A stretch of DNA of 64,000 nt from an uncultured Nitrospirales bacterium (lineage in GTDB: Bacteria > Nitrospirota > Nitrospiria > Nitrospirales > NS-4), in contig CAYYLQ010000002.1 in assembly GCA_964472655.1 (NCBI GenBank), positions 66,295-130,294 of the forward strand, in the 5' to 3' direction. Of the stretch, positions 7,933 through 39,624 are shown one piece after another; within the stretch, counting starts at the first letter, position 1; each line of letters starts with the position of its first letter. A model generated the notes under the pieces. The model was not told where the DNA came from, made no database searches, and saw only the letters and a list, made by a program, of their open reading frames with translations. A program made the position numbers and the translations under genes.

Positions 7933-7938
7933 TGAGCG

Positions 7939-10716: not shown

Positions 10717-10738
10717 AACCGCGGAGGAGACAAAGGTG

Positions 10739-11395
10739 ATGCGACGTCGTGCAAACAGGCTGGCGGTTGTCCTGGCCGGCAGCTTGATCGGCGGGGCTAT
10801 CGGGGGGATGACGGCGACGGCGTGGGCAGGGCCTTCGACCGATGCTATCAAGAAGTCCGTTGACGAGGTGATCCGCATCCTGGAAGACCCGGCGTGGAAG
10901 AAACCGGAAAAAAAGGAAGAGCGCCGCAAGCTGCTGGAACAGACCATCGCCCAACGGTTCAATTTTACCGAAATGGCGAAGCGGAGTCTGGGGGCTGAAT
11001 GGGCCAAGCGGACGCCGGAGGAGCAAAAGGAATTCGCGGCCAATTTCCAGACCTTGCTGGCCAATACGTACATCGGACGGATCGAGGCCTACTCAGGCGA
11101 GAAGGTGCAGTACCTCAAGGAAATGAGTGACGGTGAGTTCGCGGAAGTCTATACGCATGTCGACACCGGCAAGTCCGTGGTCGACATCAATTACCGACTT
11201 CAGAAAAATTCCGAGGACTGGCGCGTCTACGATGTGGTGGTGGAAGGCACCAGCCTGGTCCAGAATTACCGCGAGCAGTTCAAGAGAATCCTCCGCAAGG
11301 ATTCATTTGCGGGACTGTCCAAGCAACTTCGGGATAAGTCGGCCAACATACGCGCTCCTGCTCCGGACGGCAGCGACACGGCCAAAGGTCGATGA
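10739..11395 (+). CDS. mlaC: MlaC/Ttg2D-like periplasmic lipid-binding protein
   Basis: ATG 10739 follows GGAGGAG (10723-10729). Signal peptide MRRRANRLAVVLAGSLIGGAIGGMTATAWA. MlaC-like blocks (FNFTEMAKRSLG, FQTLLANTYI, WRVYDVVVEGTSLVQNYREQF). The ORF track starts at 10700. Confidence 0.7.
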   Translation: MRRRANRLAVVLAGSLIGGAIGGMTATAWAGPSTDAIKKSVDEVIRILEDPAWKKPEKKEERRKLLEQTIAQRFNFTEMAKRSLGAEWAKRTPEEQKEFAANFQTLLANTYIGRIEAYSGEKVQYLKEMSDGEFAEVYTHVDTGKSVVDINYRLQKNSEDWRVYDVVVEGTSLVQNYREQFKRILRKDSFAGLSKQLRDKSANIRAPAPDGSDTAKGR

Positions 11396-11401
11396 GCTCT
11401 G

Positions 11402-12610
11402 GTGACACTTTTTCTTCGCGTTGTTGGTGTTGCCTCAGCCTATGCGTTCGGATTGTTTCTTGCCCCGTTGCCGGAGGCGCGTGCCGAGGAGCAGTCCTAT
11501 TTCGTGATCCCGGCCGTCGCGGCGTCGAAGAACGACGGCGTGGACGTGGGGGTGATCGTCCCCTATGTCTTTGCGGACGACGAGGGCCGCGTGACCCAGA
11601 TCGTCGCGCCGATGTATATTCACAATGAATTTGTGGGCTCACGCGGGACAATCAACATCTTTCAGTATCCGGAGCGCGGGGAACAATACAAGCTCATTGC
11701 GTCGTTCACGGAGAAGATTGAGCGCAAATTCCTGCTCGACTACCAGAATCTCTTTCTGGAGCAAGGGCGGTACAGCCTGGAAGGAAACGTCGGGTTTTTC
11801 AAAAATGCGACGGCGCGGTTTTTCGGGATCGGCCCTCAGACCTCTGTAGCGCAAGAAACCAACTATACTGACCGCGAACTCCTGGGGCATATCACGGGCG
11901 GGCTCTATGTCGGACCCGGCCGGCGGGTGCTGTTCACTGAACGGCTGCGGAATGTAGATGTACAGGTGGGTGCGGTGCACAATCTCCCTTTTACCCAAGC
12001 GGTGTTTCCGACGATCAAAGGGACGGGCGGGGCGACGGTATGGGGCCACAAGCTGGCGTTCCTCGACGATACGCGGGACGACACGCTGACGCCCACGATC
12101 GGGACCTACTTTACAATGTTCGCGGAACTGGCGCAGACCCTGACGGCCGACACGAAAACCATCTTCAGCCGGTACGGGTTCGACTATCGGATGCTGCTGC
12201 CGAATCAGACCAAGGAGTACACTTTTGTGGTCCGGGCAAAATTGGAGGCCACGGTCGGCGGCGCTGAAATTCCGTTCTTCGAACGGAGCAGTCTGGGCGG
12301 CCAGAACTCGCTGCGCGGATTTGGCGTGGGCCGTTTTGTCGACAACCATGCCCTTGTTCTGAACGTCGAGGAGCGGATCCAGTTGTTTCATCTGAAGGTC
12401 TTTGGCACCGTCGCCGAAGTGGAGACGGCGCCCTTCCTCGACGTCGGCAAGGTGACAAATACATTCCGGTACCGGGCCTTCTCCCAGTACGAGGCCAACC
12501 CCGGCATCGGGTTTCGGGCAATCGCACGTCCCAATGTCGTGGGACGGGTGGATTTTGCAAACGGTAACGAAGGGCAAACCGTGTTTGCGGGACTGGACTT
12601 TCCCTTCTGA
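11402..12610 (+). CDS. Omp85-family outer-membrane beta-barrel without recognisable POTRA domains
   Basis: Signal peptide ending EARA. Bacterial-surface-antigen type C-terminal barrel motifs (FFERSSLGGQNSLRGFGVGRF). Terminal Phe (GLDFPF). Confidence 0.65.
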   Translation: MTLFLRVVGVASAYAFGLFLAPLPEARAEEQSYFVIPAVAASKNDGVDVGVIVPYVFADDEGRVTQIVAPMYIHNEFVGSRGTINIFQYPERGEQYKLIASFTEKIERKFLLDYQNLFLEQGRYSLEGNVGFFKNATARFFGIGPQTSVAQETNYTDRELLGHITGGLYVGPGRRVLFTERLRNVDVQVGAVHNLPFTQAVFPTIKGTGGATVWGHKLAFLDDTRDDTLTPTIGTYFTMFAELAQTLTADTKTIFSRYGFDYRMLLPNQTKEYTFVVRAKLEATVGGAEIPFFERSSLGGQNSLRGFGVGRFVDNHALVLNVEERIQLFHLKVFGTVAEVETAPFLDVGKVTNTFRYRAFSQYEANPGIGFRAIARPNVVGRVDFANGNEGQTVFAGLDFPF

Positions 12611-12624
12611 CGCATGAGGCGATA

Positions 12625-13677
12625 TTGAACGATCAGCAGAAGGGAGGGGGCCGGCCGGGTGCCCCGTGGTTCGTGCTGGGCGTGCTCACGGTCGTGCTCT
12701 TTCTGGGGCAGTCGACAGGGACCGCCGCCGCTGAAGTTTTCATCGGCCAGGGCCTCGTGCCAGTCCGAAACTACCAGCCCCTCCAGGGGCTGTCGTTGCA
12801 GATGCCGGGAGAGTCGGCGATTCCGTTGAAAAAGGGCGAACTCAGTCTACGCGCCGATTTTGCCGAAACGAGCACCATCCTGCATGAGGTGACTCCCGTC
12901 GCGAATGGCGTGCTGAAGTTCGGCCAGCTCCGTTCCGCCATTGACGTCCGGTATGGAACCGCCATGGAGAACGTGGAGGTGGGACTCGAGATCGCGTCGG
13001 TGTATCGCCATTCGACCGGACTGGACGGGCTGATCCTGGCGGTAGAGAGTTTCTTTGATAGGAGAGCCCCCGCTCGGAAGCAACTCAAGAATTCCGGTTT
13101 CGTCTACGTGCTCAACCGAAACGGACAGACTCTGCTCAATGGGCCGAACGACGCCTATGGGCTCACCGATGCTGTTTTGCACGCTAAAGGCCTGATGGTC
13201 GATGAAGGGCAGTACGCTCCGGCAGTGTCCCTGCGGCTGGCTCTGAATGTGCCGATGGGTGACCGGAGCCGTGCGTTCGGGACCCGTGTTGCGGATCTGG
13301 GCGTCGGATTGGCGCTCCAAAAGACCGTCTGGAATCGGGTGGTCCTCTATGTCAACGTCAATGAAATCCTGCCGACCGGGCAGTATTTGGGGGTAGGGCT
13401 TCGAAGCTATTTCACGTCGATCACGGGCGTGGAGTTCATGGTGACGCCGCAGTTCTCGATCACGGGACAGTTTGACTATTACCAGTCGCCGTTCGGCAAC
13501 ACGGGACTCAAGCTTTTGGATAACGGAGTCACCGAAGCCGTCTTGGCCTTCGGCTACCGTTTCACGCCGACTCTCCTCTGGCAGATCTACGGCGTAGAGA
13601 ACCTCGATTTTATCAGGGATTCCGCCGCAGATTTTACGCTTGCGACGGTGCTGACCTATCGAATTCCTCCGAGGTAG
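12625..13677 (+). CDS. Putative outer-membrane beta-barrel protein of unknown function (DUF3187-like, tentative)
   Basis: TTG start after GAGG. Signal peptide (WFVLGVLTVVLFLGQSTGTAAA). Alternating beta-strand pattern through to the C-terminus. It is the last gene of the shc operon. Confidence 0.45.
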   Translation: MNDQQKGGGRPGAPWFVLGVLTVVLFLGQSTGTAAAEVFIGQGLVPVRNYQPLQGLSLQMPGESAIPLKKGELSLRADFAETSTILHEVTPVANGVLKFGQLRSAIDVRYGTAMENVEVGLEIASVYRHSTGLDGLILAVESFFDRRAPARKQLKNSGFVYVLNRNGQTLLNGPNDAYGLTDAVLHAKGLMVDEGQYAPAVSLRLALNVPMGDRSRAFGTRVADLGVGLALQKTVWNRVVLYVNVNEILPTGQYLGVGLRSYFTSITGVEFMVTPQFSITGQFDYYQSPFGNTGLKLLDNGVTEAVLAFGYRFTPTLLWQIYGVENLDFIRDSAADFTLATVLTYRIPPR

Positions 13678-13690
13678 GAGATGGGAATTC

Positions 13691-13719
13691 TTGACACGCA
13701 CGTGTGGCTGTGTGAAAAT
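13691..13719 (+). promoter_or_regulatory. Sigma70-like promoter candidate upstream of dxs
   Basis: TTGACA (13691-13696), a 17-nt spacer, then GAAAAT (13714-13719) preceded by TGT, which resembles an extended -10. Confidence 0.35.
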
Positions 13720-13793
13720 AACCTGGTTTTTCGTGCAGTTTTCCCATCACAGCAAGAGAAGACGTTGCACGCAGTCACCAAGAGGCCGATGAC

Positions 13794-15692
13794 ATGTCCC
13801 TTTTGAAGACGATCAACAGCCCGGCCGATTTGAAACGGGTGCCGGTCGAGCAACTTCCAGCACTGGCTGAGGAGATCCGTGAGCAGATCATCTCAGTGAC
13901 GTCGGCCGTGGGCGGGCATCTGTCGTCCAACCTCGGTGTGGTCGAGCTCACCCTGGCGTTGCATTACCTGCTGGACACGCCCAAAGACAAGATCGTCTGG
14001 GATACCAGCAATCAGGCATACGCCCACAAGCTCCTGACCGGCCGGCGCGAGCTGTTCCGCACGCTCCGCCAGTACGGCGGGGTCAGCGGCTTCTGCAAGC
14101 GAGAGGAGAGCATCTACGATACGTTCAACGCGGGCCATGCCGGAACCGGCGTCTCAGCGGCGATGGGGATGGCAGTGGCGCGAGACTTGGCGGAACAGCA
14201 CCATAAAGTCGTGTGCGTAGTGGGCGATGGGGCGATGACGTCCGGCATGACCCTGGAGGCCATGCAGCACGCGGGCGGTCTGCGCAAGGACCTGCTGGTC
14301 ATTCTCAACGACAATCAGATGTCCATCTCCAAGAACGTCGGCTCGCTCTCGGCCTATCTGAACCGCACGTTCACCGGCGAATTTATGACCCATATGAAGG
14401 CAGAGGCCAAGCATCTCATCCAGGCGATCCCACAGGTGGGCGGTCAGATCAGTCGGATGGCGCACCGCGCCGAGGAGCTGGCGAAAGGCCTGATCCTGCC
14501 GGGCGTCCTATTCGAGGAACTGGGCTTCCGGTATGTCGGTCCGATCGACGGGCACAGCTTCGAGCAGTTGCTGCCGACCCTGGAGAACGTGCTCAAATTA
14601 CAGGGGCCGACGCTGTTCCACGTGATTACGAAGAAGGGGCTCGGCTACGAGCCCGCCATGAAGGATCCGGTCTGGTTCCATGCCTGCTCGGCGTTCGTGC
14701 GTGAGACGGGGCAGCCCGCTACGAAAAGCGCGAAGCCGTCCTACACCGCGGTGGCGATCAACACCCTCTGCCGGCTGGCGCGTGAAGACAAACGCATCGT
14801 CGCGATCACGGCGGCTATGTGCGACGGCACGGGCCTGAACGCCTTCGCCAAGCAGTTCCCAGACCGCTTCCACGACGTCGGCATCGCAGAGCAGCACGCG
14901 CTGACTTTTGCCGCGGGCCTTGCGACGCAAGGCGTCCGGCCGGTGGTGGCGATGTACTCCACGTTCCTGCAGCGGGCGTTTGACCAAGTCGTGCACGACG
15001 TGGCGACACAGAACCTGCCGGTCTCCATTTTCATCGACCGGGGCGGGCTGGTGGCCGAGGACGGCACGACGCACCACGGCGCGTTCGATTACGCCTTTCT
15101 CCGGCACGTGCCGAACATGGTGGTGATGGCGCCGAAGGATGAGAACGAGCTCCAGCACATGGTCAAGACATGCCTGAGCCACGAAGGCCCGGCCTCCGTC
15201 CGGTACTCCCGCGGGAGCGCCTGGGGCGTACCTATGGACCCTGAGCCGAAGGCCCTGCCGCTCGGGCGGGGCGAGCTGTTGCGCGAAGGGCATGACGTGG
15301 CCCTCGTCGCAATCGGGATTACAGTGCTCCCCGCGTTGCGGGCTGCCGAACGGCTGGCGGAGGAAGGCATCTCGGCCGCCGTCGTAAACGCCCGCTTCGT
15401 CAAGCCGCTCGATCATGCGCTGATCGCGCGGGTCGCCGGCCGGGTGAAGTGCCTTGTGACGGTGGAGGAAGGCTGCCGCATGGGCGGCTTCGGGTCCGCG
15501 GTATTGGAATCGTTGTCGGAGCAGGGCATCGGCCCCCTGTTGACGAAGGTGATGGGCCTGCCCGATAAATACATCGAGCAGGGGCCACAAGATCTGCTGC
15601 GCGTGCAGTACGGGTTGACGGCGGACGGGATCTACGAAGAGACGAAGGACTTGCTGGCCAAGGCCGATTTTCAGGTCGAGGAACGGTTCTGA
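13794..15692 (+). CDS. dxs: 1-deoxy-D-xylulose-5-phosphate synthase
   Basis: Typical N-terminus MSLLKTINSPADLK. TPP-binding motif GDGAMTSGMTLEAM...LNDNQMSIS. Transketolase-like pyrimidine-binding and C-terminal domains. Confidence 0.95.
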   Translation: MSLLKTINSPADLKRVPVEQLPALAEEIREQIISVTSAVGGHLSSNLGVVELTLALHYLLDTPKDKIVWDTSNQAYAHKLLTGRRELFRTLRQYGGVSGFCKREESIYDTFNAGHAGTGVSAAMGMAVARDLAEQHHKVVCVVGDGAMTSGMTLEAMQHAGGLRKDLLVILNDNQMSISKNVGSLSAYLNRTFTGEFMTHMKAEAKHLIQAIPQVGGQISRMAHRAEELAKGLILPGVLFEELGFRYVGPIDGHSFEQLLPTLENVLKLQGPTLFHVITKKGLGYEPAMKDPVWFHACSAFVRETGQPATKSAKPSYTAVAINTLCRLAREDKRIVAITAAMCDGTGLNAFAKQFPDRFHDVGIAEQHALTFAAGLATQGVRPVVAMYSTFLQRAFDQVVHDVATQNLPVSIFIDRGGLVAEDGTTHHGAFDYAFLRHVPNMVVMAPKDENELQHMVKTCLSHEGPASVRYSRGSAWGVPMDPEPKALPLGRGELLREGHDVALVAIGITVLPALRAAERLAEEGISAAVVNARFVKPLDHALIARVAGRVKCLVTVEEGCRMGGFGSAVLESLSEQGIGPLLTKVMGLPDKYIEQGPQDLLRVQYGLTADGIYEETKDLLAKADFQVEERF

Positions 15693-15694
15693 GC

Positions 15695-16870
15695 ATGTTC
15701 ATCAAGCGGCGCAAGACGAAGCAGATCCGCGTGGGCCAGGTGCCCATCGGCGGGGGCGCGCCGGTGGTGGTCCAGTCCATGACGACGCCGGACACGGCTG
15801 ACGTCAAAGCCACGGTCGAGCAGATCCATCAGCTGGAGCAGGTCGGGTGCGAGATCGTCCGGGTGACGGTGAACACGCCGGAGGCCGCGAAGGCGCTCCC
15901 GGCCATCAGAAAACAGACTGTGGTGCCGCTCATCGCCGACATTCACTTCGACCACCGGCTGGCGCTCAAGGCCGCGGAGGTCGTGGACTGTGTGCGCATC
16001 AATCCCGGCAACATCGGGGCCTGGTGGAAGGTGGAAGAAGTGGTGAAGGCCGTGCGGGAACGGAACATCCCCCTGCGGATCGGCGTCAACGGCGGCTCAC
16101 TCGAACGGGAACTGCTGACGAAGTACGGCTATCCGACGGCCGAGGCGCTGGCGGAGTCGGCGCTCAACGCCGTACACGCGATCGAGGACATCGGCTTCAC
16201 GAACATGAAGGTGTCGCTCAAGGCGTCGGACGTGCCCTTGATGGTGGATGCGTACCGGCTCTTTGCCCTGCAATCGGACTACCCCCTGCACCTGGGCGTG
16301 ACGGAGGCCGGCACGCTGCTGACCGGTTCGATCAAGTCCTCGGTTGGTATCGGCCTGCTGCTGGCCGACGGCATCGGGGACACGATCCGCGTGTCGCTGG
16401 CGGCCGATCCGGTGGAGGAAGTCAAGGTCGGGTTCGAGGTTCTCAAGGCGCTCGAATTGCGGCACCGCGGGGTCAACGTCATCGCCTGTCCGACGTGCGG
16501 GCGGGTGGAGATTGACGTGGTCAAGCTCGCCAATGAGATCGAGAAACGGGTGGGGCATATCCGGGTTCCGTTGACGGTGTCGGTGCTGGGCTGCGTCGTG
16601 AACGGGATCGGCGAAGGCAAGGAGGCCGACATCGGCATCGCCGGCGGCGAGGGCCAAGGGGGTCATGGCATTCTCTTCAAAGAGGGGAAGCTGATCCGGA
16701 AGGTCAAGTCGGAAGATCTGATGGAGACGTTGCTCGCCGAAATCGAGATCATGGCCAAGGAGCGGGAAGCCGGCGGCGCGGAAGACAAAGACAACGGGCA
16801 CGGCCACGGCGGTGCTCAGGGTGATGCGGCGACTCCCGCGAAGAAGGAAATTCCGGTCCTCAAGGTCTGA
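15695..16870 (+). CDS. ispG: 4-hydroxy-3-methylbut-2-enyl diphosphate synthase (GcpE)
   Basis: GcpE-type sequence throughout (VQSMTTPDT, RVTVNTPEAA, RINPGNIG). Cluster cysteines CPTCGR and GCVVNGIGE. Starts 2 nt after the dxs stop. Carries a roughly 35-aa Gly/His/Asp-rich C-terminal tail. Confidence 0.95.
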   Translation: MFIKRRKTKQIRVGQVPIGGGAPVVVQSMTTPDTADVKATVEQIHQLEQVGCEIVRVTVNTPEAAKALPAIRKQTVVPLIADIHFDHRLALKAAEVVDCVRINPGNIGAWWKVEEVVKAVRERNIPLRIGVNGGSLERELLTKYGYPTAEALAESALNAVHAIEDIGFTNMKVSLKASDVPLMVDAYRLFALQSDYPLHLGVTEAGTLLTGSIKSSVGIGLLLADGIGDTIRVSLAADPVEEVKVGFEVLKALELRHRGVNVIACPTCGRVEIDVVKLANEIEKRVGHIRVPLTVSVLGCVVNGIGEGKEADIGIAGGEGQGGHGILFKEGKLIRKVKSEDLMETLLAEIEIMAKEREAGGAEDKDNGHGHGGAQGDAATPAKKEIPVLKV

Positions 16871-16926: not shown

Positions 16927-17002
16927 GGCGCCGTACCCAAGTGGTTAAGGGAGCAGTCTGCAAAACTGCGATGCAGCGGTTCGACCCCGCTCGGCGCCTC
17001 CA
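16927..17002 (+). tRNA. tRNA-Cys (anticodon GCA), CCA encoded
   Basis: Hand-folded cloverleaf. Acceptor GGCGCCG/CGGCGCC. Anticodon stem GCAGT/ACTGC with loop CTGCAAA. T-arm AGCGG-TTCGACC-CCGCT. Discriminator T followed by CCA. Confidence 0.9.
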
Positions 17003-17047
17003 AGCCCGCCTTCGAAATTTTCGCCGCGAACCATTTTTTCTCGGAGG

Positions 17048-17326
17048 CTAACCCGAGGTTGTTTTCGCATCAGACTCCGAGAGGCGATGACAAATCAAAT
17101 CTAAGACATCTGCGAAGGTTTGGAGCTTCTTCATGTCGGCATCTAGAATTGTAAGGCCGAACTCATCCTCTATGCCCATTGCCAGCTCGACGGCATCGAG
17201 CGAATCCAGCGCCAGGTCGTCGACGAGACGATCCGTGGGCTTGATCACTTCCTTCTTCACCCCGGTCTTCTCGATCAAGATTTTCTTTAAACGTTCTCGT
17301 ATATTTTCCAGATCCATCCAAGCCAA
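17048..17326 (-). CDS. Acyl carrier protein (dedicated, second-copy type)
   Basis: Phosphopantetheine attachment motif LALDSLDAVEL. Size of 92 aa. Confidence 0.85.
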   Translation of the reverse strand: MAWMDLENIRERLKKILIEKTGVKKEVIKPTDRLVDDLALDSLDAVELAMGIEDEFGLTILDADMKKLQTFADVLDLICHRLSESDAKTTSG

Positions 17327-17380
17327 CTCCTTGCCGAAGCGTTAATCTTCAAGCATTCTAATCAAGAAAGCCGAAAAGGG

Positions 17381-18628
17381 TCAAGCGGATACCCTGCGTA
17401 GCGCAAGAACTGCGTTCGTACCGCCAAACGCAAAAGCGTTGACCAGGGCCGTCCGCACATCGGTACGTCGAGCGGTGTTAGGAATGTAATCAAGATCGCA
17501 TTCCGGGTCATGGTGTTCATAATTGATGGTGGGGGGCAAGCTTTGGTCGCGCAGCGCCATGATCGTCGCGATGGTCGCCAACGCCCCTGAAGCTCCGAGC
17601 GTATGCCCGATCATGGACTTGATTGAGCTCACCGCCAGTTTCGAAACATGGGGGCCGAAAACCTGCTTGATAGCTTTTGTCTCTCTTGCATCATTGAACG
17701 GAGTGGAGGTGCCGTGGGCGCTGATGTAATCGATGTCGCCGGGATGGAAACCGGCATCGGACAGCACCAAAGCCAAGCAACGAGTAGCGCCATCGGCGTC
17801 TGGCGCGGGGGTTGTGGAATGGTAGGCGTCAGCCGTCATCGCGTACCCGCAGAGTTCGGCGTAGATGCGGGCCCCACGGGCAAGGGCATGGTCTCGTTCC
17901 TCCAAGATGACGACCCCGGACCCTTCGCCCAGCACGAAGCCGTCCCGCTGCGCATCAAAGGGACGGCTGGCATGCTGGGGGGCTTCGTTCCGTGACGAAA
18001 GTGCCCGCATCGAGTCAAAGCCCCAGAGGACAAGCGGCGTAACGATGGCCTCGCTTCCCCCGGCCAGCATGATGTCGGCATCGCCGCGCTGAATTAGCCG
18101 GAAGGCATCGCCAATGGCATGACTCCCGGCAGCGCAGGCGGTGCTGGGAGAGGTATTCGGTCCTTTCGCGCCATACCGCATCGAAATCCATCCCGCGGCC
18201 ATGTTGGGGATGATCGCCGGGATCATATACGGCACCGCTCTGCCGGCTCCATATTGCGATAGGATGCTCTGGGCTTCCATGAGCTTCGGCACTCCTCCCA
18301 TTGCCGTGCCAATACTCGTCCCTGTCCGGTCAGCGGTCCCTCCGGACAAGACGAGCGAAGCATCGCGCATGGCTTCTTCGGTTGCCGCCAGGGCGTATTG
18401 AATAAAGAGGTCCGTCCGGAGAACGTCCTTCTTTTCCATAAACGCCAGAGGATCGAAATTCGGGACTTGCGCGGCGATTTGCGTTCTATGTTGGTGGGGG
18501 TCGAATCGCGTAATCCGGCCGACTCCGGAACGTCCTTCCGTGAGGCCTTGCCAAAATCTTCTGACCCCTGCACCCAGTGGTGTGACCGCGCCCATCCCTG
18601 TTACAACGACGCGTTGCCTAGCCATCAC
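17381..18628 (-). CDS. Beta-ketoacyl-ACP synthase II-like (FabF family)
   Basis: Cys-His-His triad contexts are present (PSTACAAGSHAIG, ADAYHSTTP, ISAHGTSTPFND). C-terminal GFGGTNA-type motif (FAFGGTNAVL). Confidence 0.9.
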   Translation of the reverse strand: MMARQRVVVTGMGAVTPLGAGVRRFWQGLTEGRSGVGRITRFDPHQHRTQIAAQVPNFDPLAFMEKKDVLRTDLFIQYALAATEEAMRDASLVLSGGTADRTGTSIGTAMGGVPKLMEAQSILSQYGAGRAVPYMIPAIIPNMAAGWISMRYGAKGPNTSPSTACAAGSHAIGDAFRLIQRGDADIMLAGGSEAIVTPLVLWGFDSMRALSSRNEAPQHASRPFDAQRDGFVLGEGSGVVILEERDHALARGARIYAELCGYAMTADAYHSTTPAPDADGATRCLALVLSDAGFHPGDIDYISAHGTSTPFNDARETKAIKQVFGPHVSKLAVSSIKSMIGHTLGASGALATIATIMALRDQSLPPTINYEHHDPECDLDYIPNTARRTDVRTALVNAFAFGGTNAVLALRRVSA

Positions 18629-18675
18629 TTTCCCCCAATAAGCGTTGGATGGCGGTCAGTCGCAGACGAGTTCTA

Positions 18676-19677
18676 TTATAACAGGGAGTCGGCGGAATGG
18701 TGATTGCGCAGTGTAGGCTTTTCCTTGGGCAACTGGGCGCCGAAAAACTCGGCCAACGCTGCCACCACTGAGTGCCTCTGCTTATCGACCGTAATCACGT
18801 GGTAGCAGTCTTCTAAGAGGACCAACCGTTTCTCCCTGGAGGAGATTTCGTCATGGACGATCTGGGCATTGCGTGGGCTGGAAAGGTCATCCTCCAGGGC
18901 TTGGAGAATGACGGTGGGTGCGGTGACGGCTCGCAACCGGCTGCGAACGCGTGTGATGAGCCGATCGAGATCGGTGAACGTTTTCAATGGAAATACCGGG
19001 TAGCCTATCGTTGCCGCCGAAGAGGCTGAAATCCCGTTATTCCCGGCATGGTTGGTCCAACGTGTCCAATGGGCGCGCAGCCACTCCCGCAGCAACGTGA
19101 GCATACTATAAGACTGCTGCATACGAGCCTGGAGTTGCTCGTCCTTGATTCCGAAGGGAGGCCCATCGACGTGAAAGAAGAAAGATTGCAAGGGACGGGG
19201 GATCCATTTCATGGCCAATGGCAGGATTGCGTGTGTCCAGGGAGTATTCCACCCATCGTAGATGAATGTCGGGGAAAGGACCCCGACGCCATTAATACCC
19301 ACGAAGGCTGAGGCTTCCAGGGCCAGGAGTCCACCTGCGCTGAGACCGGCCACAAAGATATAGTCGTAGCGATCCCGCGCAAAGGCAAGTTGCGCCTTGA
19401 TATGTTCCAGCCAGTCATGGTCATTGGTCTTCAGAAGGTCTCTGAGCCGCGTGCCGTGGCCTGGCAGCGTCGTTGCGTAGACGTCCCATCGATGGCGCGC
19501 CAGTCCCCGGCCCAGGTAGCGCATCTCGGTCGGTGTGCCGGTCACACCGTGGATCAGGTACACCAAGACCTTCGAACCGTTCTCAAAGGCCAGGTCGGTG
19601 CTCCGGCGACCGACCATGCCATCGAGCAGGCTCGGCGGTTTGGCAGGGTTCTGGCTGAGGTTTAGTGTTTCGTGCAT
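18676..19677 (-). CDS. Alpha/beta-fold hydrolase (esterase, lipase or thioesterase-like)
   Basis: Oxyanion-type LIHGVTGTP. Nucleophile elbow GLSAGG. Candidate acid and His residues (LEDDLS, CYHVITVD). Confidence 0.75.
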   Translation of the reverse strand: MHETLNLSQNPAKPPSLLDGMVGRRSTDLAFENGSKVLVYLIHGVTGTPTEMRYLGRGLARHRWDVYATTLPGHGTRLRDLLKTNDHDWLEHIKAQLAFARDRYDYIFVAGLSAGGLLALEASAFVGINGVGVLSPTFIYDGWNTPWTHAILPLAMKWIPRPLQSFFFHVDGPPFGIKDEQLQARMQQSYSMLTLLREWLRAHWTRWTNHAGNNGISASSAATIGYPVFPLKTFTDLDRLITRVRSRLRAVTAPTVILQALEDDLSSPRNAQIVHDEISSREKRLVLLEDCYHVITVDKQRHSVVAALAEFFGAQLPKEKPTLRNHHSADSLL

Positions 19678-21056
19678 TGGGTAAATAGATAATCCAGCAA
19701 CTCGATCCCCAGATCGATCTCCTCTCGGGTGATGTCCAGGGACGGCGCCAGGGTGAAGACGTTCTTGTAGTATCCCCCGATGTCCAGCACCAGTCCCATC
19801 GGGCCGCGGGACGTGGGAATTCTCCCGGCCAGGCCGGCTTCAAAGATGCGGTCCGTCAAGGCCTTGTCCGGGGTAAACCGGTCGGGTTGCGTCACTTCGA
19901 TGCGCAGGGCCAGCCCCAAGCCGGAAACGTCGCCGATGACGGCGTGACGTTTCTTGAGTTCTTCGAGTCTTTGCAGAAAATAGGCCCCCGATGCGGCCAC
20001 TTTTTCCTGATAGCGCTGCTGGTCAATCCACTGGAGCGTGGCCCATGCCGCGGCGGTCCCCAGCGGATTGGAGGAAAACGTGGAATGGGTCGACCCCGGA
20101 GGAAACTGCTCAGGCGAGATGAGCGATTCCTCTGCCCACAGGCCCGAGATAGGATTTAATCCATTCGTCATTGCCTTGCCGAACACGACGATGCGCGGCT
20201 TTATGCCGAAGTGCTCCATGGCCCAGAATTTCCCGGTCCTGAAAAATGCCATCTGGATTTCGTCATCCACCAGGAGAATTTTGCGTTCATCCAGGATCTT
20301 CTGGAGTCGCGTAAAATACTCCGGCGGCGGCACGATGTACCCGCCCGTGGCCTGCACCGGCTCCACGTAGAAGGCGACGAATTCCGGCTCCTCCGCCCTC
20401 GAATCCCAGAACGAGTTGTACTCCGTCTCAAACAAGCGCTCGACTTGATTGACGCAATAATAGTCGCAGGTTTCCAGCTTCTTTCCGTACGGGCAGCGGT
20501 AACAGTACGGGAAGGGGACGAAGTGCGCGCGGTTGGAAAAATGGCCGAAGCGGCGGCGATACCGGTAGCTGGACGTGATCTCCGATGCGCCGAGCGTCCG
20601 GCCATGGTACCCGCCCGTAAACGCCATGAAGAGGCTTTTCCCGGTGGCGTTGCGCACAAGTTTCATGGAGTCCTCGATCGCCTGTGCTCCGCCGACATTG
20701 AACTGCACGCGCCCCTCGAGGCCGAACGCGCGCAGACACTCCGTCGCCAGTCGTTCGGCGACCAAGACCTTTTCTTCGTGGAGATACTGGCAGGCCAACT
20801 GAGGCAACCGGTCAAGCTGCACTTTCAAGGCCTCGATGATGGTTTTGTTCCGATAGCCGAAGTTGACGGCGGAGTACCACATTTGAAGGTCGAGGTAGGG
20901 CCTGTCATCCCGGTCATACAGAAAACTCCCCTCGCAGCTCTGAAAAAACTTGGGCGATGGTGAGTAGTGGACCGTATCGCCATGCGAGCAATACTGGGCT
21001 TCCTTCTTGCGGAGAACATCTTCGCTCATCAGACGCCGCTTCTCAGGAGGATTCAT
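19662..21056 (-). CDS. Class III PLP-dependent aminotransferase
   Basis: Class III blocks (FTGGYHGRT, LLVDDEIQMAFFRTGKFWA) and PLP lysine context VVFGKAMTNG. Start placed at ATG 21056, which forms an ATGA overlap with the upstream HAD gene stop. The longer ORF to 21269 would overlap that gene. Confidence 0.85.
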   Translation of the reverse strand: MNPPEKRRLMSEDVLRKKEAQYCSHGDTVHYSPSPKFFQSCEGSFLYDRDDRPYLDLQMWYSAVNFGYRNKTIIEALKVQLDRLPQLACQYLHEEKVLVAERLATECLRAFGLEGRVQFNVGGAQAIEDSMKLVRNATGKSLFMAFTGGYHGRTLGASEITSSYRYRRRFGHFSNRAHFVPFPYCYRCPYGKKLETCDYYCVNQVERLFETEYNSFWDSRAEEPEFVAFYVEPVQATGGYIVPPPEYFTRLQKILDERKILLVDDEIQMAFFRTGKFWAMEHFGIKPRIVVFGKAMTNGLNPISGLWAEESLISPEQFPPGSTHSTFSSNPLGTAAAWATLQWIDQQRYQEKVAASGAYFLQRLEELKKRHAVIGDVSGLGLALRIEVTQPDRFTPDKALTDRIFEAGLAGRIPTSRGPMGLVLDIGGYYKNVFTLAPSLDITREEIDLGIELLDYLFTQCTKH

Positions 21057-21763
21057 GTCGCCGTATCTTTCCCGTGAAAGATTTGTTCGGTAACTTGCGT
21101 GAGGGTCTCGAACGGTTCGCACGCGATTCCCTGGAGCTTGCACCAGTCTCGAAGGTTCCCCTTGGCAAAGACCTTGCCAGCTTTCGCCGAGACACACCGG
21201 TCGGATTGACCGTCTCCGATGTACACGGACCTGGGGGACGAAAGTCCGGAAGGCACGGCCAGCGCGCACTTACATGTGGCGGCTCCACTCTCACACCCTG
21301 ATACAGCACACGGGAAACTGAGTGAGGGCCGTCCGTCTAGGGCCCAGCTCAGGTGACTCGCAAACACGGGGATGTGCGACAGACCGTGTCGAGACAGCAC
21401 CGTCTTGATAAACAGGTCGATGCCGTCACTCACGATCGTAAGGCGTGTGCCGTGCTCGGCGCATCGCTGGTCAAGAGAAAAAATTCCTTCGTCTATGGGG
21501 AGATCGGCCACAAACTGGACAAGCGTTGCCTCATCTGCCCGGATCAGCTCCACTTGCCGCGCAAGACATTCCTGGCTGTTGATCTCTCCCTTTTGCCATT
21601 GCTGCTCCCACTCTCGGAATGCAGGAAGCGCAAAGGCCTCAAGGACAGCATCGGTGATATCGACTTCGGTTATCGTCCCATCGAAATCACAGTAAACTTC
21701 CGCCGGAGGTAGCCAACCACGCGCGGGGAGTTCCTCGCGGCATCCGACCGATTTCGTTAACAA
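21053..21763 (-). CDS. HAD-IB family phosphatase, MtnX-like (2-hydroxy-3-keto-5-methylthiopentenyl-1-phosphate phosphatase-like)
   Basis: HAD motif I DFDGTIT, motif II TIVSDG, motif IV YIGDGQSDRC. Cys-rich insert CAVSGCESGAATCKC occupies the same position as the Cys cluster of MtnX as I recall its sequence. TTG start. Confidence 0.7.
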   Translation of the reverse strand: MLTKSVGCREELPARGWLPPAEVYCDFDGTITEVDITDAVLEAFALPAFREWEQQWQKGEINSQECLARQVELIRADEATLVQFVADLPIDEGIFSLDQRCAEHGTRLTIVSDGIDLFIKTVLSRHGLSHIPVFASHLSWALDGRPSLSFPCAVSGCESGAATCKCALAVPSGLSSPRSVYIGDGQSDRCVSAKAGKVFAKGNLRDWCKLQGIACEPFETLTQVTEQIFHGKDTAT

Positions 21764-21926
21764 ACGTGCCCTCCCGAATAGGGGTGAAAATGGATGGATA
21801 GTGACTTCAAAGGGTGGTATTTAAACACGAAATCCTTCCCAAAATCCAGCTTTTTCACAATTCTGCAACCCCATGCACGAGGATTCTCAAGCCCGCTAGC
21901 TCGATCCCGCCGCTGTTGCCCCTTAT

Positions 21927-22385
21927 TCATTCAGCCGTACGGGGGAGCAGTTCAAGATCGACCGTTCCCAATGCTCCGGTAATATTGACGGCATAGGGGA
22001 ATCGCGCCTGGAGGTCGGCAAACGCCTTCCGGCTGCCCTTGGTTTCCAGATGCGCCATCACGATTTTCACGCCGCGCGGCCGCATGGCGTGGTTCACCGC
22101 CTCGAACACGTACCACCAGCCGTCCGCCGCGTACTTGTCCTTTATGATGATCCGGGCGAAGGAAATGGTCGCCTCGTAGGCGTTGCTCGCCCGATCGAAA
22201 TGGACGGCGAACAAGGCTTCGGGCCGGCCGTTGTGGCTGACAGTGTAGTACACGCGCTCCTGCGGGACGAACATCGTAGGCGCGGAGGCGTATTCCGGCA
22301 GAAACGCAGTCTTAAAGTTGGGAAAGACATTCTTCATGCGGTCGGCATAGTCTGTCGCGTCGCTTCCGGTAATTGCGTTGACCAT
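21927..22385 (-). CDS. Hypothetical protein (152 aa), no family recognised
   Basis: ATG-initiated ORF with a plausible amino-acid composition. It is divergent from the XRE regulator gene. No motif was recognised. Confidence 0.4.
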   Translation of the reverse strand: MVNAITGSDATDYADRMKNVFPNFKTAFLPEYASAPTMFVPQERVYYTVSHNGRPEALFAVHFDRASNAYEATISFARIIIKDKYAADGWWYVFEAVNHAMRPRGVKIVMAHLETKGSRKAFADLQARFPYAVNITGALGTVDLELLPRTAE

Positions 22386-22460
22386 GGCAGGACCTCAATA
22401 CCTCCTCTTGCTTCGTATCACCGGGTTGCTCCCGCCATATTAAATCAGTATCATCCCGCC

Positions 22461-22922
22461 ATGTCTATTGCCGCCAACATTCAAGCGTGGCGCCTGTCCA
22501 AGAAGCAGTCCATCGCGGCGGTGGCCCAGCGGGCGGGGCTGGCGGCGGAGTCGCTGGAGGCCATCGAAGCCGGCGAAGTTGATCCGTCCGCCTCGGCATT
22601 GGAGAATCTCGCGTCGGCCCTCGGGATTCCTGCCGCCTGGCTCCATGGCGATCCCGAGCACTTGGAGCGCCTGCTGGATGCCGACGAACGGACGGAATCA
22701 GCGCGGACGAGGGCGGTCGATCCGGTTACCGAGCGGGTGCTCCTCGGGTCGCGGGAGGAGTTCGAGCTCTACGTGCTGCTGACTTCCATCTTGATGTCCA
22801 GCGATCCCAAACTGCGGCTGGCGGTGGAAGCCAGCCTTCGCAGTCTTGCCAAACAGGCCAAGCAGCCGACCGTCCCGTGGCAATCCCGGCCGCCGGGACA
22901 TTTTGAGCCGCCTTCCGACTAA
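22461..22922 (+). CDS. XRE-family helix-turn-helix transcriptional regulator
   Basis: N-terminal HTH (IQAWRLSKKQSIAAVAQRAGLAAESLEAIEAGEVDPSASALENLASALGIPAAWL). ORF 22050..22922 trimmed to ATG 22461, because the upstream part is antisense to the 152-aa gene. Confidence 0.7.
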   Translation: MSIAANIQAWRLSKKQSIAAVAQRAGLAAESLEAIEAGEVDPSASALENLASALGIPAAWLHGDPEHLERLLDADERTESARTRAVDPVTERVLLGSREEFELYVLLTSILMSSDPKLRLAVEASLRSLAKQAKQPTVPWQSRPPGHFEPPSD

Positions 22923-22933
22923 GAGAGACTTAT

Positions 22934-23275
22934 TCAGACATGCGTGACGGCCCAGAGCAGGGCCGCGCGGCAGATCGCGAGCGGCGCCGTGTCGGCGCAG
23001 AGCACGACTTTATTGAGCAGCTTGGTGTTGAGCACGCAGTACCAGCACTCGGTGCCCTCGGGGTAGCCCAGCGAGGCGAGGTTCTGGTGCTTGTGCTTGA
23101 AGTGCGGCGCGCCGAAATAAACCCCGTCTTTGCGGATCATGGTCTCGACGACGGTCCAGGCCGCCGCGATGTCGGTGGAGTAGGGAGGAATGGGATCGCG
23201 CGTGAGCCCCACGACCTTCTCTGCGATCAAGGCGTCCAGTTCCGGGCTGGCCGGCACGGTCTTGGGATCCACCAT
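22934..23275 (-). CDS. Small conserved hypothetical protein, phage 'ABA sandwich'-like (tentative)
   Basis: Sequence LDALIAEKVVGL...PPYSTDIAAAWTVVETM resembles, by recollection, a small domain common in phage and prophage genes. Start trimmed to ATG 23275 so that it does not overlap hpnH. Confidence 0.45.
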   Translation of the reverse strand: MVDPKTVPASPELDALIAEKVVGLTRDPIPPYSTDIAAAWTVVETMIRKDGVYFGAPHFKHKHQNLASLGYPEGTECWYCVLNTKLLNKVVLCADTAPLAICRAALLWAVTHV

Positions 23276-23360: not shown

Positions 23361-24377
23361 ATGGCCGTGCCTGTCTCCCAGATGTTCACTGTCACTAAGT
23401 ACGTGTTGACCCAGAAGCTCAAAGGGGTCAAACGCTATCCGCTCGTCCTGATGCTGGAACCACTCTTTCGCTGCAATCTTGCCTGTGCGGGCTGCGGCAA
23501 GATCCAGTATCCCGATCATGTCCTGGACAAGCGTCTGACGCCGGAACAGTGCTGGGCGGCCGCCGAGGAATGCGGCGCGCCGATCGTGAGCATTCCGGGC
23601 GGGGAGCCGCTCATCCATCCTGAGATGCCGGCGATCGTGAAAGGACTGGTCGATCGGAAGAAGTACGTCTATCTTTGCACCAACGCCATCTTATTGGAGC
23701 GCAAGCTCGACGAGTACCAGCCGTCGCAATACCTGACATTCAGCATTCACATGGACGGCTTGCAGGCAGAGCACGACCTGGCGGTCTGTCGGGACGGCGT
23801 GTACGACGTCGCCGTCAAAGCGATCAAGGCGGCGCTCACGCGAGGGTTCCGGGTCACCACGAACACGACGCTCTTCGACGACGCCGATCCCGCGCGCGTC
23901 CGGAAGTTCTTCGATGCCATGATGGAGTTGGGCGTCGAAGGCATGATGATTTCTCCGGGGTACAGCTACGAGAAGGCGCCCGACCAAAAGAACTTCCTCA
24001 AGCGGCAGCGGACGCGCGAGCTTTTTTCGCGGATTCTCCACCGGCCCAAGACCGGCTGGCGGTTCAATCAGTCCCCGCTCTTCCTCGACTTCCTCATGGG
24101 CAAGGTGGACTACCAATGCACGCCCTGGGGCAATCCGACCTACAACATCTTCGGCTGGCAGAAGCCCTGTTACCTGCTCCAGGACGGCTATGTGGCGAGT
24201 TTCAGGGAACTCATGGACCAGACCGCCTGGGACAGCTACGGAACCGGACGTAACGAGAAATGCGCCGATTGCATGGTGCATTGCGGATATGAAGCGTCCG
24301 CCGTGGACGATACGTTCGGCTCGCTGCGGGGGTTCGGCCGATCGGTCGTGGCGACGCTGATGCCGACCGCCCGGTAG
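23361..24377 (+). CDS. hpnH: Radical-SAM adenosylhopane synthase HpnH-like
   Basis: CxxxCxxC motif CNLACAGC near the N-terminus. HpnH-like blocks (VSIPGGEPLIHPE, YLCTNAILL, RVTTNTTLF). C-terminal Cys pair (CADCMVHCGYE). Confidence 0.85.
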   Translation: MAVPVSQMFTVTKYVLTQKLKGVKRYPLVLMLEPLFRCNLACAGCGKIQYPDHVLDKRLTPEQCWAAAEECGAPIVSIPGGEPLIHPEMPAIVKGLVDRKKYVYLCTNAILLERKLDEYQPSQYLTFSIHMDGLQAEHDLAVCRDGVYDVAVKAIKAALTRGFRVTTNTTLFDDADPARVRKFFDAMMELGVEGMMISPGYSYEKAPDQKNFLKRQRTRELFSRILHRPKTGWRFNQSPLFLDFLMGKVDYQCTPWGNPTYNIFGWQKPCYLLQDGYVASFRELMDQTAWDSYGTGRNEKCADCMVHCGYEASAVDDTFGSLRGFGRSVVATLMPTAR

Positions 24378-27968: not shown

Positions 27969-28796
27969 ATGGCTGGGGAACGAAGCTTCATCGGAATCCT
28001 GATCAAGCGCCTCTTCCTGGGTGGAGTCGCGGCGGTCGTCCTGTTCCTTTTAGGTCGTTTCGTCTTCCACTTCCCCCTCGTGTTTCAGGTCATGTTCGTT
28101 CTCTACGCAGGGCTGGGCACACTCGTTTTTATCCTTCTGGATGCTCCTGCCGTGTCGCCGTTCAGCGGCGTGAAGGCCTTGGTGGCCCTGGTGGCTTTCT
28201 ACGCGGTGATCTCGGGAGCCTTCATCGCCGGCGCCAACTTCCTGCCGCAGTACGATCCCACGGTCGAAAAAGGGAAGATCGACAAGATCGTGAAGCCGAA
28301 GCTGGCGGCGACCGACAAAGGCAAGATGGATGAACTGCTGAAGCGCAGCGTGGAGCTGAACGCCCAGAGCCAGGCCATCATGAAGCGGCTGGAGGCTCTG
28401 GGCGGCGCGGACAAGCTCAAGGCGGTCGGAGGCGACAAAGGCGGCGGCGGGGCTTCGCCCAAAGCGGCGGCCGGCGATCTGGTCGCGATCGGCAAGGAGC
28501 AGTACGACCTGCAGGAGTGCTACAACTGCCACAAGATCGGCGGCAAAGGCTCGGTCAAGAAGCGCGGTCCGATTCTGGACAACATTGGCAGCCTTATGAA
28601 GCCCGAGGAGATGAAGGAAAAATTGCTGAACCCCCGCGCGTGGATGGCCGATGGATTCGAGAAGGAATACAACAAGAAACTCATGCCGGATAAGTACAAG
28701 GAGCTGATGTCGGACCAGGAGATCGACGCCCTGGTGGCGTATCTGGCCACTTTGAAGGACGCGTCGGTCCAGACTCCCAAACCCATCAAGAAGTAA
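27969..28796 (+). CDS. Membrane-anchored monoheme c-type cytochrome
   Basis: Three N-terminal hydrophobic helices, a linker, then CYNCH with a class I cytochrome c-like C-terminus (DQEIDALVAYLATL). Confidence 0.8.
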   Translation: MAGERSFIGILIKRLFLGGVAAVVLFLLGRFVFHFPLVFQVMFVLYAGLGTLVFILLDAPAVSPFSGVKALVALVAFYAVISGAFIAGANFLPQYDPTVEKGKIDKIVKPKLAATDKGKMDELLKRSVELNAQSQAIMKRLEALGGADKLKAVGGDKGGGGASPKAAAGDLVAIGKEQYDLQECYNCHKIGGKGSVKKRGPILDNIGSLMKPEEMKEKLLNPRAWMADGFEKEYNKKLMPDKYKELMSDQEIDALVAYLATLKDASVQTPKPIKK

Positions 28797-28818
28797 ACGA
28801 GCGCCGGGTACGATCTTC

Positions 28819-30840: not shown

Positions 30841-30852
30841 CGGAGGCCGGGC

Positions 30853-39549: not shown

Positions 39550-39624
39550 GCCGGCGTAGCTCAGTGGTAGAGCAGCTGATTCGTAATCAGCAGGTCGGTG
39601 GTTCGATCCCACTCGCCGGCTCCA
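39550..39624 (+). tRNA. tRNA-Thr (anticodon CGT), CCA encoded
   Basis: Hand-folded cloverleaf. Acceptor GCCGGCG/CGCCGGC. D-arm GCTCAGTGGTAGAGC. Anticodon stem GCTGA/TCAGC with loop TTCGTAA. T-loop GGTTCGATCC. Discriminator T followed by CCA. Confidence 0.9.

Follow-up and report, generated by a model that had tools for sequence, protein, structure and literature searches.

We analysed a 64,000-nt stretch of contig CAYYLQ010000002.1 from an uncultured Nitrospirales bacterium (hereafter the window, in whose numbering all window positions are given), in which a block of five minus-strand genes lies among genes for hopanoid and methylerythritol phosphate (MEP) pathway enzymes. The conserved core of this gene set is a HAD-IB phosphatase together with an unusual pyridoxal phosphate (PLP) enzyme of the class III fold, and this pair is found in hundreds of species from more than ten phyla. 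The reading we favour, tentatively and at somewhat less than even confidence, is that the block serves, as an accessory and mobile module, to make an amine-containing lipid or lipid head-group, that it represents a widespread and uncharacterised gene set not dedicated to hopanoids, and that it owes its present location to insertion at a tRNA-Cys gene. An earlier note on this DNA had labelled the block an "orphan lipid operon", and the comparative evidence bears this out in that it points to an accessory, uncharacterised, lipid-related operon.

The five genes, with the coordinates, overlaps and motifs reported in that note, are confirmed by the open reading frames (ORFs), by profile matches and by direct reading of the sequence. 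From 5' to 3' on the minus strand, the operon comprises the following genes, the last two encoding a β-ketoacyl-ACP synthase (KAS) and an acyl carrier protein (ACP):

21053–21763, minus strand: HAD-IB phosphatase, the first gene, with a TTG start after GGGAGGG; matches PF12710 and PF06888
19662–21056, minus strand: class III-fold PLP enzyme; PF00202, E = 1e-72
18676–19677, minus strand: α/β hydrolase; Hydrolase_4 and Abhydrolase_6, GLSAG nucleophile motif
17381–18628, minus strand: FabF-type KAS II; TIGR03150, 578.1 bits against a cut-off of 493.75
17048–17326, minus strand, with a likelier ATG start at 17317: ACP; PF00550, NF002148 (74 vs 71 bits), DSLD motif

As read off the sequence, the stop codon of the HAD gene and the start codon of the PLP-enzyme gene share an ATGA overlap, and the PLP-enzyme and hydrolase genes overlap by 16 nt. 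A promoter and terminator scan returned nothing above chance, a promoter-like site at 17384–17355 included. Likewise, a search for sigma-54 promoters (TGGCAC-N5-TTGC, one mismatch) gave four matches where 4.4 are expected, none of them upstream of the HAD gene, and the window holds no homologues of HisK or sigma-54 regulators.

The distribution of the gene set was assessed by a species-level genome scan, which yielded at least 583 PLP-enzyme loci confirmed by tblastn; the neighbour counts and the family alignment given below refer to the 80 of these most similar to the query. The PLP enzyme is 82–89% identical in Nitrospira and 84% in Methylomirabilis, 62–68% in Acidobacteriota, Planctomycetia, Legionella, Magnetococcales, Parachlamydiales, Omnitrophota and Beta/Deltaproteobacteria, and 57–61% on plasmids of Rhizobium, Agrobacterium, Sinorhizobium, Phyllobacterium, Bartonella and Xanthomonas. 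A HAD homologue lies within 3 kb of the PLP-enzyme homologue at 77 of the 80 loci. The partner of this pair is either the hydrolase (33/80) or a PaaK/DVU_1553-like adenylating ligase (41/80), and tblastn never finds both, with hydrolase-type clusters in Nitrospira, Methylomirabilota, Thermoanaerobaculia, Proteobacteria and Parachlamydiales and ligase-type clusters in Blastocatellia, Terriglobia, Planctomycetia and Omnitrophota. KAS genes occur within 10 kb at 30 loci, and an ACP gene is among the neighbours at 27. Other recurrent neighbours are a glycosyltransferase resembling monogalactosyldiacylglycerol synthase (MGDG/UgtP-like; 35/80), a polysaccharide deacetylase (30/80), a DegT-type aminotransferase (20/80), an ArnE/F-like EamA protein (18/80), a FemAB-like GNAT protein (17/80) and an arginase-family protein (15/80); flippase-like neighbours in other genomes are ArnE/F-like EamA pairs and proteins resembling HpnL or the transmembrane (TM) part of MprF, and two-component regulators also frequently adjoin the pair.

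Individual clusters illustrate how these partners combine, those of Agrobacterium, Rhizobium and Xanthomonas being compact forms on annotated replicons. Agrobacterium has the HAD phosphatase, the class III enzyme, an arginase-family protein, EamA, the hydrolase, a GNAT protein and a second EamA, all beside a TolC/ABC exporter, and Rhizobium adds to this set a fatty-acid desaturase and a cyclopropane-fatty-acid synthase. In Xanthomonas sacchari, the HAD/PLP pair is accompanied by KAS, ACP, GNAT, arginase, DegT, two EamA proteins and the hydrolase, beside an HlyD/ABC/TolC exporter. Two Legionella species encode, beside the pair, a fusion of a fatty acyl-AMP ligase (FAAL), an ACP and the hydrolase, the latter at the C-terminus (L065, 12137–15256, minus strand; L027, 12043–15078, minus strand; 84% mutual identity). 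One of these loci (L065, 7400–9613, minus strand) also holds a DegT enzyme with a weakly supported N-terminal FemAB-like region. The trio of HAD phosphatase, PLP enzyme and hydrolase occurs without KAS and ACP in Methylomirabilis, several Nitrospira and Agrobacterium. At a Magnetococcales locus (L047), the hydrolase had seemed to be fused to FemAB, but BLAST did not confirm this and the fusion was dropped.

The PLP enzyme matches best the profiles PRK08117, PRK05769 and GABA-AT-like, and its matches to NCBIfam models all fall far below the respective cut-offs. Its residues were checked in HMMER alignments to solved relatives and in the 80-member family alignment. The PLP-binding Lys294 and Asp265 are invariant in all 80 members. 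Equally invariant are two substitutions, namely Thr435 in place of the canonical arginine that binds the α-carboxylate and Thr237 in place of the glutamate of the QGEGG motif, which here reads QAT/QGT-GG. Around Thr435, the window sequence NVFT435LAP stands against A-I-R in 7vno, V-I-R in 9wqz, V-L-R in 9wrf and V-I-R in 7jh3. Given the loss of this Arg/Glu pair, either the donor may be an unusual one or the enzyme may be something other than a transaminase. It keeps R153 of the HGRT motif, and the following loop, S-S-Y-R-Y-R-R-R-x-G-H-F, has invariant R165, R167 and R168. This basic loop, together with R153, could bind phosphate, and the loop and the obligate phosphatase partner together suggest an anionic, probably phosphorylated substrate. 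Finally, 77 of the 80 members share a C-x2-C-x8-C-x3-C motif that the closest solved relative lacks, and these four cysteines may form a metal or Fe-S site.

The phosphatase carries the catalytic motifs of the HAD superfamily, DFDGT (DxDxT), TIVSDG and GDGQSD (GDGxxD), and the PF06888 family that it matches is of the PHOSPHO1/2 type. The earlier note described it as like MtnX, the phosphatase of methylthioadenosine salvage. This description holds at the level of the subfamily: the protein passes the broad MtnX-like model TIGR01489 (84.2 bits against a cut-off of 81.55), the only such model that it passes, and its best match in the Protein Data Bank (PDB) is MtnX itself (2fea, E = 5e-10, aligned residues 23–232). 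MtnX function itself is not supported, as the protein fails the MtnX equivalog models NF007103 (83.5 vs 292 bits) and TIGR03333 (60 vs 303.2 bits) and no methionine-salvage genes are among the recurrent neighbour families of the 80 loci.

The hydrolase is of a monoacylglycerol-lipase/Est30-like type with an enlarged cap, and its closest PDB relatives are bacterial monoacylglycerol lipases and carboxylesterases (E = 5e-29). We propose that it is an acyl-ACP off-loading enzyme or an acyltransferase, and its place in the Legionella fusion, where it occupies the position of a thioesterase domain, argues that it off-loads or transfers an acyl chain. The KAS II has an intact triad, with the cysteine in TACAAG and the histidines in AHGTST and GHTLGA. 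The housekeeping context fabD-fabG-acpP-fabF is not found around it: the KAS gene precedes the ACP gene, and no fabD, fabG or fabH neighbours it. Judged from this context, it appears to be an accessory FabF copy with the ACP as its dedicated carrier. Close relatives of this KAS (89–100% identity) are found in a few contigs only, all in the order hydrolase-KAS-ACP; a look-up of its exact full sequence gave no entry, and the match in L086 is truncated. The next relatives, outside this lineage, are 65–71% identical and belong to Nitrospirales, where they sit in other specialised-lipid cassettes, one with KAS-ACP beside a FeeM-type N-acyl synthase and others with radical-SAM, glycosyltransferase, reductase, KAS, FabA-like and ACP genes. 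KAS proteins adjoining the HAD/PLP pair in other phyla are only some 45% identical to that of the window. An acyl-loading device, either KAS plus ACP or FAAL-ACP, has thus been recruited repeatedly, which is an argument for the trio using an acyl chain bound to ACP.

Two of these observations on Nitrospirales deserve mention in their own right. At L084 (9857–13143), KAS-ACP genes adjoin those for a ShlB/Omp85-type protein and for an N-acyl amino acid synthase of the FeeM type that has a cyclic-nucleotide-binding (cNMP-binding) domain, and L171–L173 carry radical-SAM/glycosyltransferase/reductase/KAS/ApeI-like/ACP sets. The order thus harbours several orphan specialised-lipid loci.

Combining these elements, we envisage the following route. 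The PLP enzyme would aminate a small phosphorylated carbonyl compound, for instance a triose phosphate, to an amino-alcohol phosphate of the serinol-phosphate type, and KAS and ACP would build a dedicated, possibly 3-oxo, acyl-ACP. The hydrolase, acting like a terminal thioesterase or an acyltransferase, would then move the acyl chain to the amine, a step for which the ligase of the other cluster type would substitute ATP-dependent amide formation, and the HAD phosphatase would take off the phosphate. Elaboration and flipping of the resulting lipid of the N-acyl amino-alcohol type would fall to partner genes, which in this genome would have to lie outside the window. More speculatively, the glycosyltransferase and deacetylase, or the FemAB-like and arginase-like proteins, could add and unmask a further amine, and EamA or HpnL/MprF-TM-like proteins could flip the product. 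Such an amide-lipid model accounts for the universal phosphatase, for the mutual exclusivity of hydrolase and ligase and for the repeated recruitment of acyl-ACP suppliers. Gut bacteria are known to contain N-acyl serinols, but there N-acyl synthases make them. Full-text literature searches for this combination of genes, or for what it makes, turned up no paper on the cluster. NCBIfam (June 2026) lacks a dedicated model for any of three proteins, the PLP enzyme, the FemAB-like and the arginase-like protein, and PDB sequence searches with the latter two gave no informative match.

Several points weigh against this amide-lipid model. The PLP enzyme does without the arginine and glutamate that class III transaminases use for their amino-acid co-substrate, and may be a lyase, mutase or racemase instead. 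Its presumed substrate is deduced solely from the obligate phosphatase partner and the basic loop. The hydrolase might be no more than an esterase. The 64-kb window has no homologues of the FemAB-like, arginase-like, DegT and EamA partners, and the neighbourhoods inspected are the 80 nearest to the query among the at least 583 loci. Finally, the HAD-PLP enzyme-hydrolase trio adjoins true hpnI/K/J/L genes in three other Nitrospiraceae loci, which a reading independent of hopanoids takes for co-localisation and to which we return below.

Known systems offer partial parallels. In the glucuronamide pathway of the C. jejuni HS:2 capsule, Cj1437 converts dihydroxyacetone phosphate into serinol phosphate, Cj1438 is the amide ligase and the HAD phosphatase Cj1435 acts last, an order established by experiment (PMC11800397). 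The likeness would lie in the reaction logic, that is, a PLP enzyme giving an amino-alcohol phosphate, amide formation and late dephosphorylation by a HAD enzyme, and is at most a mechanistic analogy. The carboxylate there is a sugar acid rather than a fatty acyl group, that pathway employs no ACP, KAS or flippase, and homology of the PLP enzymes is unlikely. Ornithine-lipid synthesis by OlsB/OlsA and the FeeM-type synthases with their ACP FeeL resemble the block in that an accessory acyl carrier supplies the N-acylation of a small amine. The block differs in having no OlsB- or FeeM-type GNAT protein, acyl transfer presumably falling to the α/β hydrolase, and in that its amine is apparently made in situ by the PLP enzyme and phosphatase instead of being drawn from the amino-acid pool. 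The partners found in other genomes (ArnE/F-like EamA pairs, an ArnB-like DegT enzyme, a FemAB-like GNAT protein of aminoacyl-transferase fold, MprF-TM/HpnL-like proteins and two-component regulators) recall MprF and the ArnB/ArnE/ArnF system. Scores against Arn models are, however, far under the cut-offs, there is neither a GT-C transferase nor a UDP-sugar dehydrogenase, and these partners are not in the window.

The genes that surround the block bear on how it came to lie where it does. These are the following:

5767–7932, plus strand: shc, 42–45% identical to annotated Shc
7939–8706, plus strand: hpnG-like gene of the methylthioadenosine/S-adenosylhomocysteine (MTA/SAH) nucleosidase family
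10700–11395, plus strand: MlaC/HpnM-like gene
13794–15692, plus strand: dxs
15695–16870, plus strand: ispG
16927–17002, plus strand: tRNA-Cys (GCA), found by ARAGORN, its 3' end the left boundary of the insert described below
21927–22385, minus strand: 152-residue hypothetical protein with no family match, in the insert
22461–22922, plus strand: Xre-type helix-turn-helix gene, in the insert
22934–23275, minus strand: Phage_ABA_S-domain protein, which stays next to hpnH in the closest relatives
23361–24377, plus strand: hpnH, about 60% identical to annotated HpnH

The earlier note had the block between dxs-ispG and hpnH, which is correct as to position; the flanks need amending in that dxs and ispG are on the plus strand and converge on the block, the tRNA-Cys gene intervenes and three small, unrelated ORFs separate the HAD gene from hpnH. 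That note had also missed shc and the hpnG-like gene upstream. As can be seen, the plus-strand genes form one co-directional cluster that runs from 5767 to 16870 and resumes at 23361–24377, and comprises shc, the hpnG-like gene, MlaE-like and MlaF-like genes, a 149-residue ORF at the MlaD position, the MlaC/HpnM-like gene, an Omp85-family gene, DUF3187, dxs, ispG, tRNA-Cys and hpnH. The order Omp85-DUF3187-dxs-ispG-tRNA-hpnH is kept in more than ten related contigs, and this arrangement suggests an Mla-like, Omp85-linked hopanoid export route in Nitrospira.

That the block is a later arrival in this cluster follows from comparison with related contigs. A scan for hpnH relatives gave 80 contigs, 27 of which hold both ispG and hpnH. 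The gap between these two genes ranges from 338 to 6935 nt in the 27 contigs and is below 1 kb in 12, and not one of the 27 has any of the five block genes in it. The tRNA-Cys gene lies within the gap in all 12 relatives tested for it. The closest block-free relative (L096) is collinear with the window by BLASTN up to position 17002, the 3' end of the tRNA, and resumes at 22945, with an unrelated 1.45-kb filler between the two collinear stretches. This break, together with the absence of the block from the 27 contigs, identifies window positions 17003–22944 as an insertion of 5.9 kb, which contains the five block genes, the 152-residue hypothetical protein and the Xre-type gene. GC content at third codon positions (GC3) is 0.66–0.72 in the block genes versus 0.82–0.86 in dxs, ispG and hpnH. 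Thus, of the features by which tRNA-associated islands are recognised, a boundary at the tRNA 3' end, absence from relatives and deviating composition are present. An integrase and flanking repeats are not: no direct repeats of the tRNA-Cys end (att sites) were found, and the ORFs of 17003–22944, all of which are accounted for, include no integrase match. The same insert is found in contig L086 (100% identical) and in soil contigs L174 and L175 (86% nucleotide identity), and so marks a small sub-lineage. Among Nitrospira relatives, the ispG/tRNA-Cys/hpnH junction is a hypervariable insertion hot spot with differing contents (L096–L154). What brought the block close to MEP and hopanoid genes was therefore its insertion at a tRNA-Cys hot spot in a hopanoid cluster that already existed.

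Some further features of the window may be recorded here. Downstream of hpnH lie genes for a cytochrome c, a cytochrome bd-like protein and a cytochrome b, a set that we regard as typical of Nitrospira. Two long antisense ORFs of low GC3, one of 916 residues at 28786–31536 (minus strand), with no family match and overlapping the cytochrome b gene, and one of 850 residues at 6151–8703 (minus strand), overlapping shc, are, almost without doubt, artefacts of the high GC content. A 622-residue protein with a C-terminal caspase (Peptidase_C14) domain is encoded at 37646–39514 (plus strand), just upstream of tRNA-Thr at 39550–39624.

The foremost alternative to a module not dedicated to hopanoids is that in Nitrospiraceae the module decorates hopanoid head-groups, by adding an amine and/or an acyl group to bacteriohopanepolyols (BHPs) to give, for example, N-acylated amino- or glucosaminyl-BHPs or amino-alcohol-conjugated BHPs, and that it serves another lipid anchor in hopanoid-free bacteria. 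The block of the window lineage lies inside a shc...hpnH cluster, and the three other Nitrospiraceae loci place the trio beside hpn genes recognised by curated models. In Nitrospira sp. Nam74 and in L010, the trio is followed by HpnI (321.6 vs 310 bits), HpnK (371 vs 232.6 bits), EamA, DegT and an epimerase; in L011, HpnJ (837 vs 578 bits), HpnK, HpnL (323 vs 196 bits) and one unknown gene precede the HAD, PLP-enzyme and hydrolase genes, with HpnI 6 kb further, and these hpn genes and the trio share one strand downstream of a sigma-54 regulator. With the window lineage counted, hpn genes are close by in three or four different arrangements among the 11 or so Nitrospirota/Methylomirabilota loci whose flanks could be used. 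By our rough estimate, hpn genes would be this near to a locus picked at random with a probability of about 2%. N-Acylated amino-BHPs and N-acylglucosaminyl-bacteriohopanetetrol (BHT) are documented (PMC8537080), as is 35-ethenolamine-BHT, for which there is no known pathway (PMC12583986), and we found in these two papers neither biosynthetic genes nor an acyltransferase for N-acylated BHPs or ethenolamine-BHT. Two resemblances in these neighbourhoods did not survive scrutiny: the flippase-like neighbours in Planctomycetes score 147–153 bits against 195.65 for HpnL and were not counted as hopanoid genes, and a CzcA-type RND pump beside the Nam74 trio was rejected as HpnN (26 vs 752 bits).

The distribution of the PLP enzyme speaks against such a hopanoid role, orthologues of 58–68% identity being present in hopanoid-free bacteria. 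To our knowledge, the carriers in Legionella, Xanthomonas and Agrobacterium are without hopanoids. The orthologue of Pyrinomonas methylaliphatogenes K22 is 68% identical, and this strain has neither hopanoids nor hpn genes (PMC5462960); those of Rhizobium plasmids are about 60% identical, and the genus is listed as without shc (PMC12583986). Hence, the enzymes' own substrates cannot be hopanoids. Moreover, most Nitrospira loci (L006, L008, L009, L015, L017 and L181) have no hpn gene within 10 kb, nor were hpn genes found nearby at L001 and L013, and in the window itself the proximity of hpnH is explained by the tRNA hot spot and its variable content. The earlier note had asked whether the block is conserved and whether it lies near hpn genes elsewhere, and the answer is mixed: the pair recurs in hopanoid-free carriers, and the trio does stand beside hpn genes in three other Nitrospiraceae loci. 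Since hpn proximity is commoner than we would expect by chance, we keep as the main rival that the product of the module, or its acyl transfer, is employed on hopanoid head-groups in Nitrospiraceae, unlikely though we hold this to be. A more far-reaching version, to which we give distinctly little credence, has the pair and its acyl-transfer partner constitute a widespread, undescribed route to a lipid anchor or head-group that is amide-linked and based on a serinol-like amino-alcohol, and that in nitrite-oxidising Nitrospiraceae is coupled to hpnI/J/K/L for nitrogen-containing or acylated composite BHPs. The PLP enzyme, by virtue of its missing carboxylate-binding arginine, Arg-rich loop and Cys4 motif, would then add a new functional class to the class III fold.

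One locus touches on this theme from another side. On the megaplasmid of Mycetohabitans endofungorum (L180, 4215–26949), phosphonolipid-type genes (a CDP-alcohol phosphatidyltransferase, a protein with a lysylphosphatidylglycerol (LPG)-synthase domain, a cytidylyltransferase, aepX, aepY and an aminoethylphosphonate (AEP) aminotransferase) lie directly beside dxs, an MMPL transporter, ispH, hpnH, hpnA, shc and hpnD, which gives a further example of genes for amine head-groups next to a hopanoid cluster.

An improbable alternative to lipid synthesis is that the trio remodels or degrades phospho-amine head-groups, with the PLP enzyme a lyase, mutase or racemase acting, for instance, on phosphoethanolamine, the HAD protein a phosphoethanolamine phosphatase resembling PHOSPHO1 and the hydrolase a lipase for lysolipids. 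Such a scheme would fit a PLP family that does without the Arg/Glu pair needed for a keto-acid co-substrate and whose class III relatives include racemases and the ammonia-lyase PbfA (237 bits), and it agrees with the PF06888 (PHOSPHO1/2) match of the HAD protein, with the monoacylglycerol lipases as closest solved relatives of the hydrolase and with the two-component regulators that often adjoin. The company that the pair keeps argues for biosynthesis instead: KAS, ACP, the FAAL-ACP fusion, a phosphopantetheinyl transferase (PPTase), FabA-like proteins, glycosyltransferases, flippase-like proteins and exporters recur beside it, and if lyase and phosphatase shared one phospho-amine as substrate, their activities would be redundant.

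The second of two proposals in the earlier note was a β-amino fatty acid or aminolipid pathway, and in its broad form, that of an aminolipid, it fits the comparative evidence. In its strict form, KAS makes a β-ketoacyl-ACP, the class III enzyme converts this into a β-aminoacyl-ACP following the logic of iturin and mycosubtilin synthesis, and the hydrolase frees a β-amino fatty acid. The adjacency of KAS, ACP, class III enzyme and hydrolase, both here and in several phyla, is consistent with this, an acidic ACP could dock onto the PLP enzyme at its basic loop, and the iturin and mycosubtilin assembly lines (FAAL-ACP-ketosynthase-aminotransferase) likewise combine acyl loading, a ketosynthase and a class III enzyme. 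The block proteins are free-standing, however, and the ketosynthase is dispensable across the family, KAS being near the pair at the aforementioned 30 of 80 loci only. Legionella draws its acyl supply from a FAAL-ACP with no ketosynthase, and KAS and ACP are missing beside the trio in Methylomirabilis, several Nitrospira and Agrobacterium. The near-universal phosphatase has no counterpart in those assembly lines and no role in the strict form, which we thus judge very improbable.

The other proposal of the note, maturation of the hopanoid side chain, with the HAD protein acting on phosphoribosylhopane from a phosphorolytic HpnG, an HpnO-type aminotransferase giving aminobacteriohopanetriol and KAS, ACP and hydrolase N-acylating it, is hardly credible and is largely refuted on that note's own terms, for although shc, an hpnG-like gene and hpnH belong to the cluster that holds the block, the enzyme that takes ribosylhopane onwards is not fully assigned (PMC12583986) and a Streptomyces fungicidicus hopanoid cluster (hpnC-D-E-shc-hpnH-ispG-dxs-aminotransferase) also carries an aminotransferase of the HpnO type, highly conserved orthologues exist where shc, hpnH and hpnG are absent (PMC5462960; PMC12583986), 27 related contigs keep ispG-tRNA-hpnH without the block, the HAD protein fails the MtnX equivalog models and the location is explained by insertion at the tRNA. 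Nor does the PLP enzyme appear to be of the HpnO type, as had been suggested. It shares with HpnO and the hpnI/J/K pathway the class III fold and, in the window and the three other Nitrospiraceae loci, the closeness of hpn genes, but is only 26% identical over 367 residues (109 bits) to the Streptomyces aminotransferase, whose best profiles are PigE and acetylornithine transaminases and thus differ from its own, and its family occurs in hopanoid-free bacteria and is devoid of the Arg/Glu pair of the ornithine/acetylornithine type.

If the favoured reading of an accessory amine-lipid module is correct, hundreds of bacterial species would share an unrecognised pathway to an amine-bearing membrane or outer-membrane lipid, built on a PLP enzyme with an atypical active site. 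Its carriers span Nitrospirota, Methylomirabilota, Acidobacteriota, Planctomycetota, Legionella, Rhizobiaceae (on plasmids), Xanthomonas, Chlamydiae-related bacteria and magnetotactic lineages, and the tractable ones, Xanthomonas, Agrobacterium and Rhizobium, put the question within direct experimental reach. For annotation practice, the window illustrates that proximity to hpn and MEP genes can stem from a tRNA insertion hot spot. For geobiology, a coupling to hopanoid side-chain genes in nitrite oxidisers, if true, would bear on the sources of nitrogen-containing and acylated BHP biomarkers.

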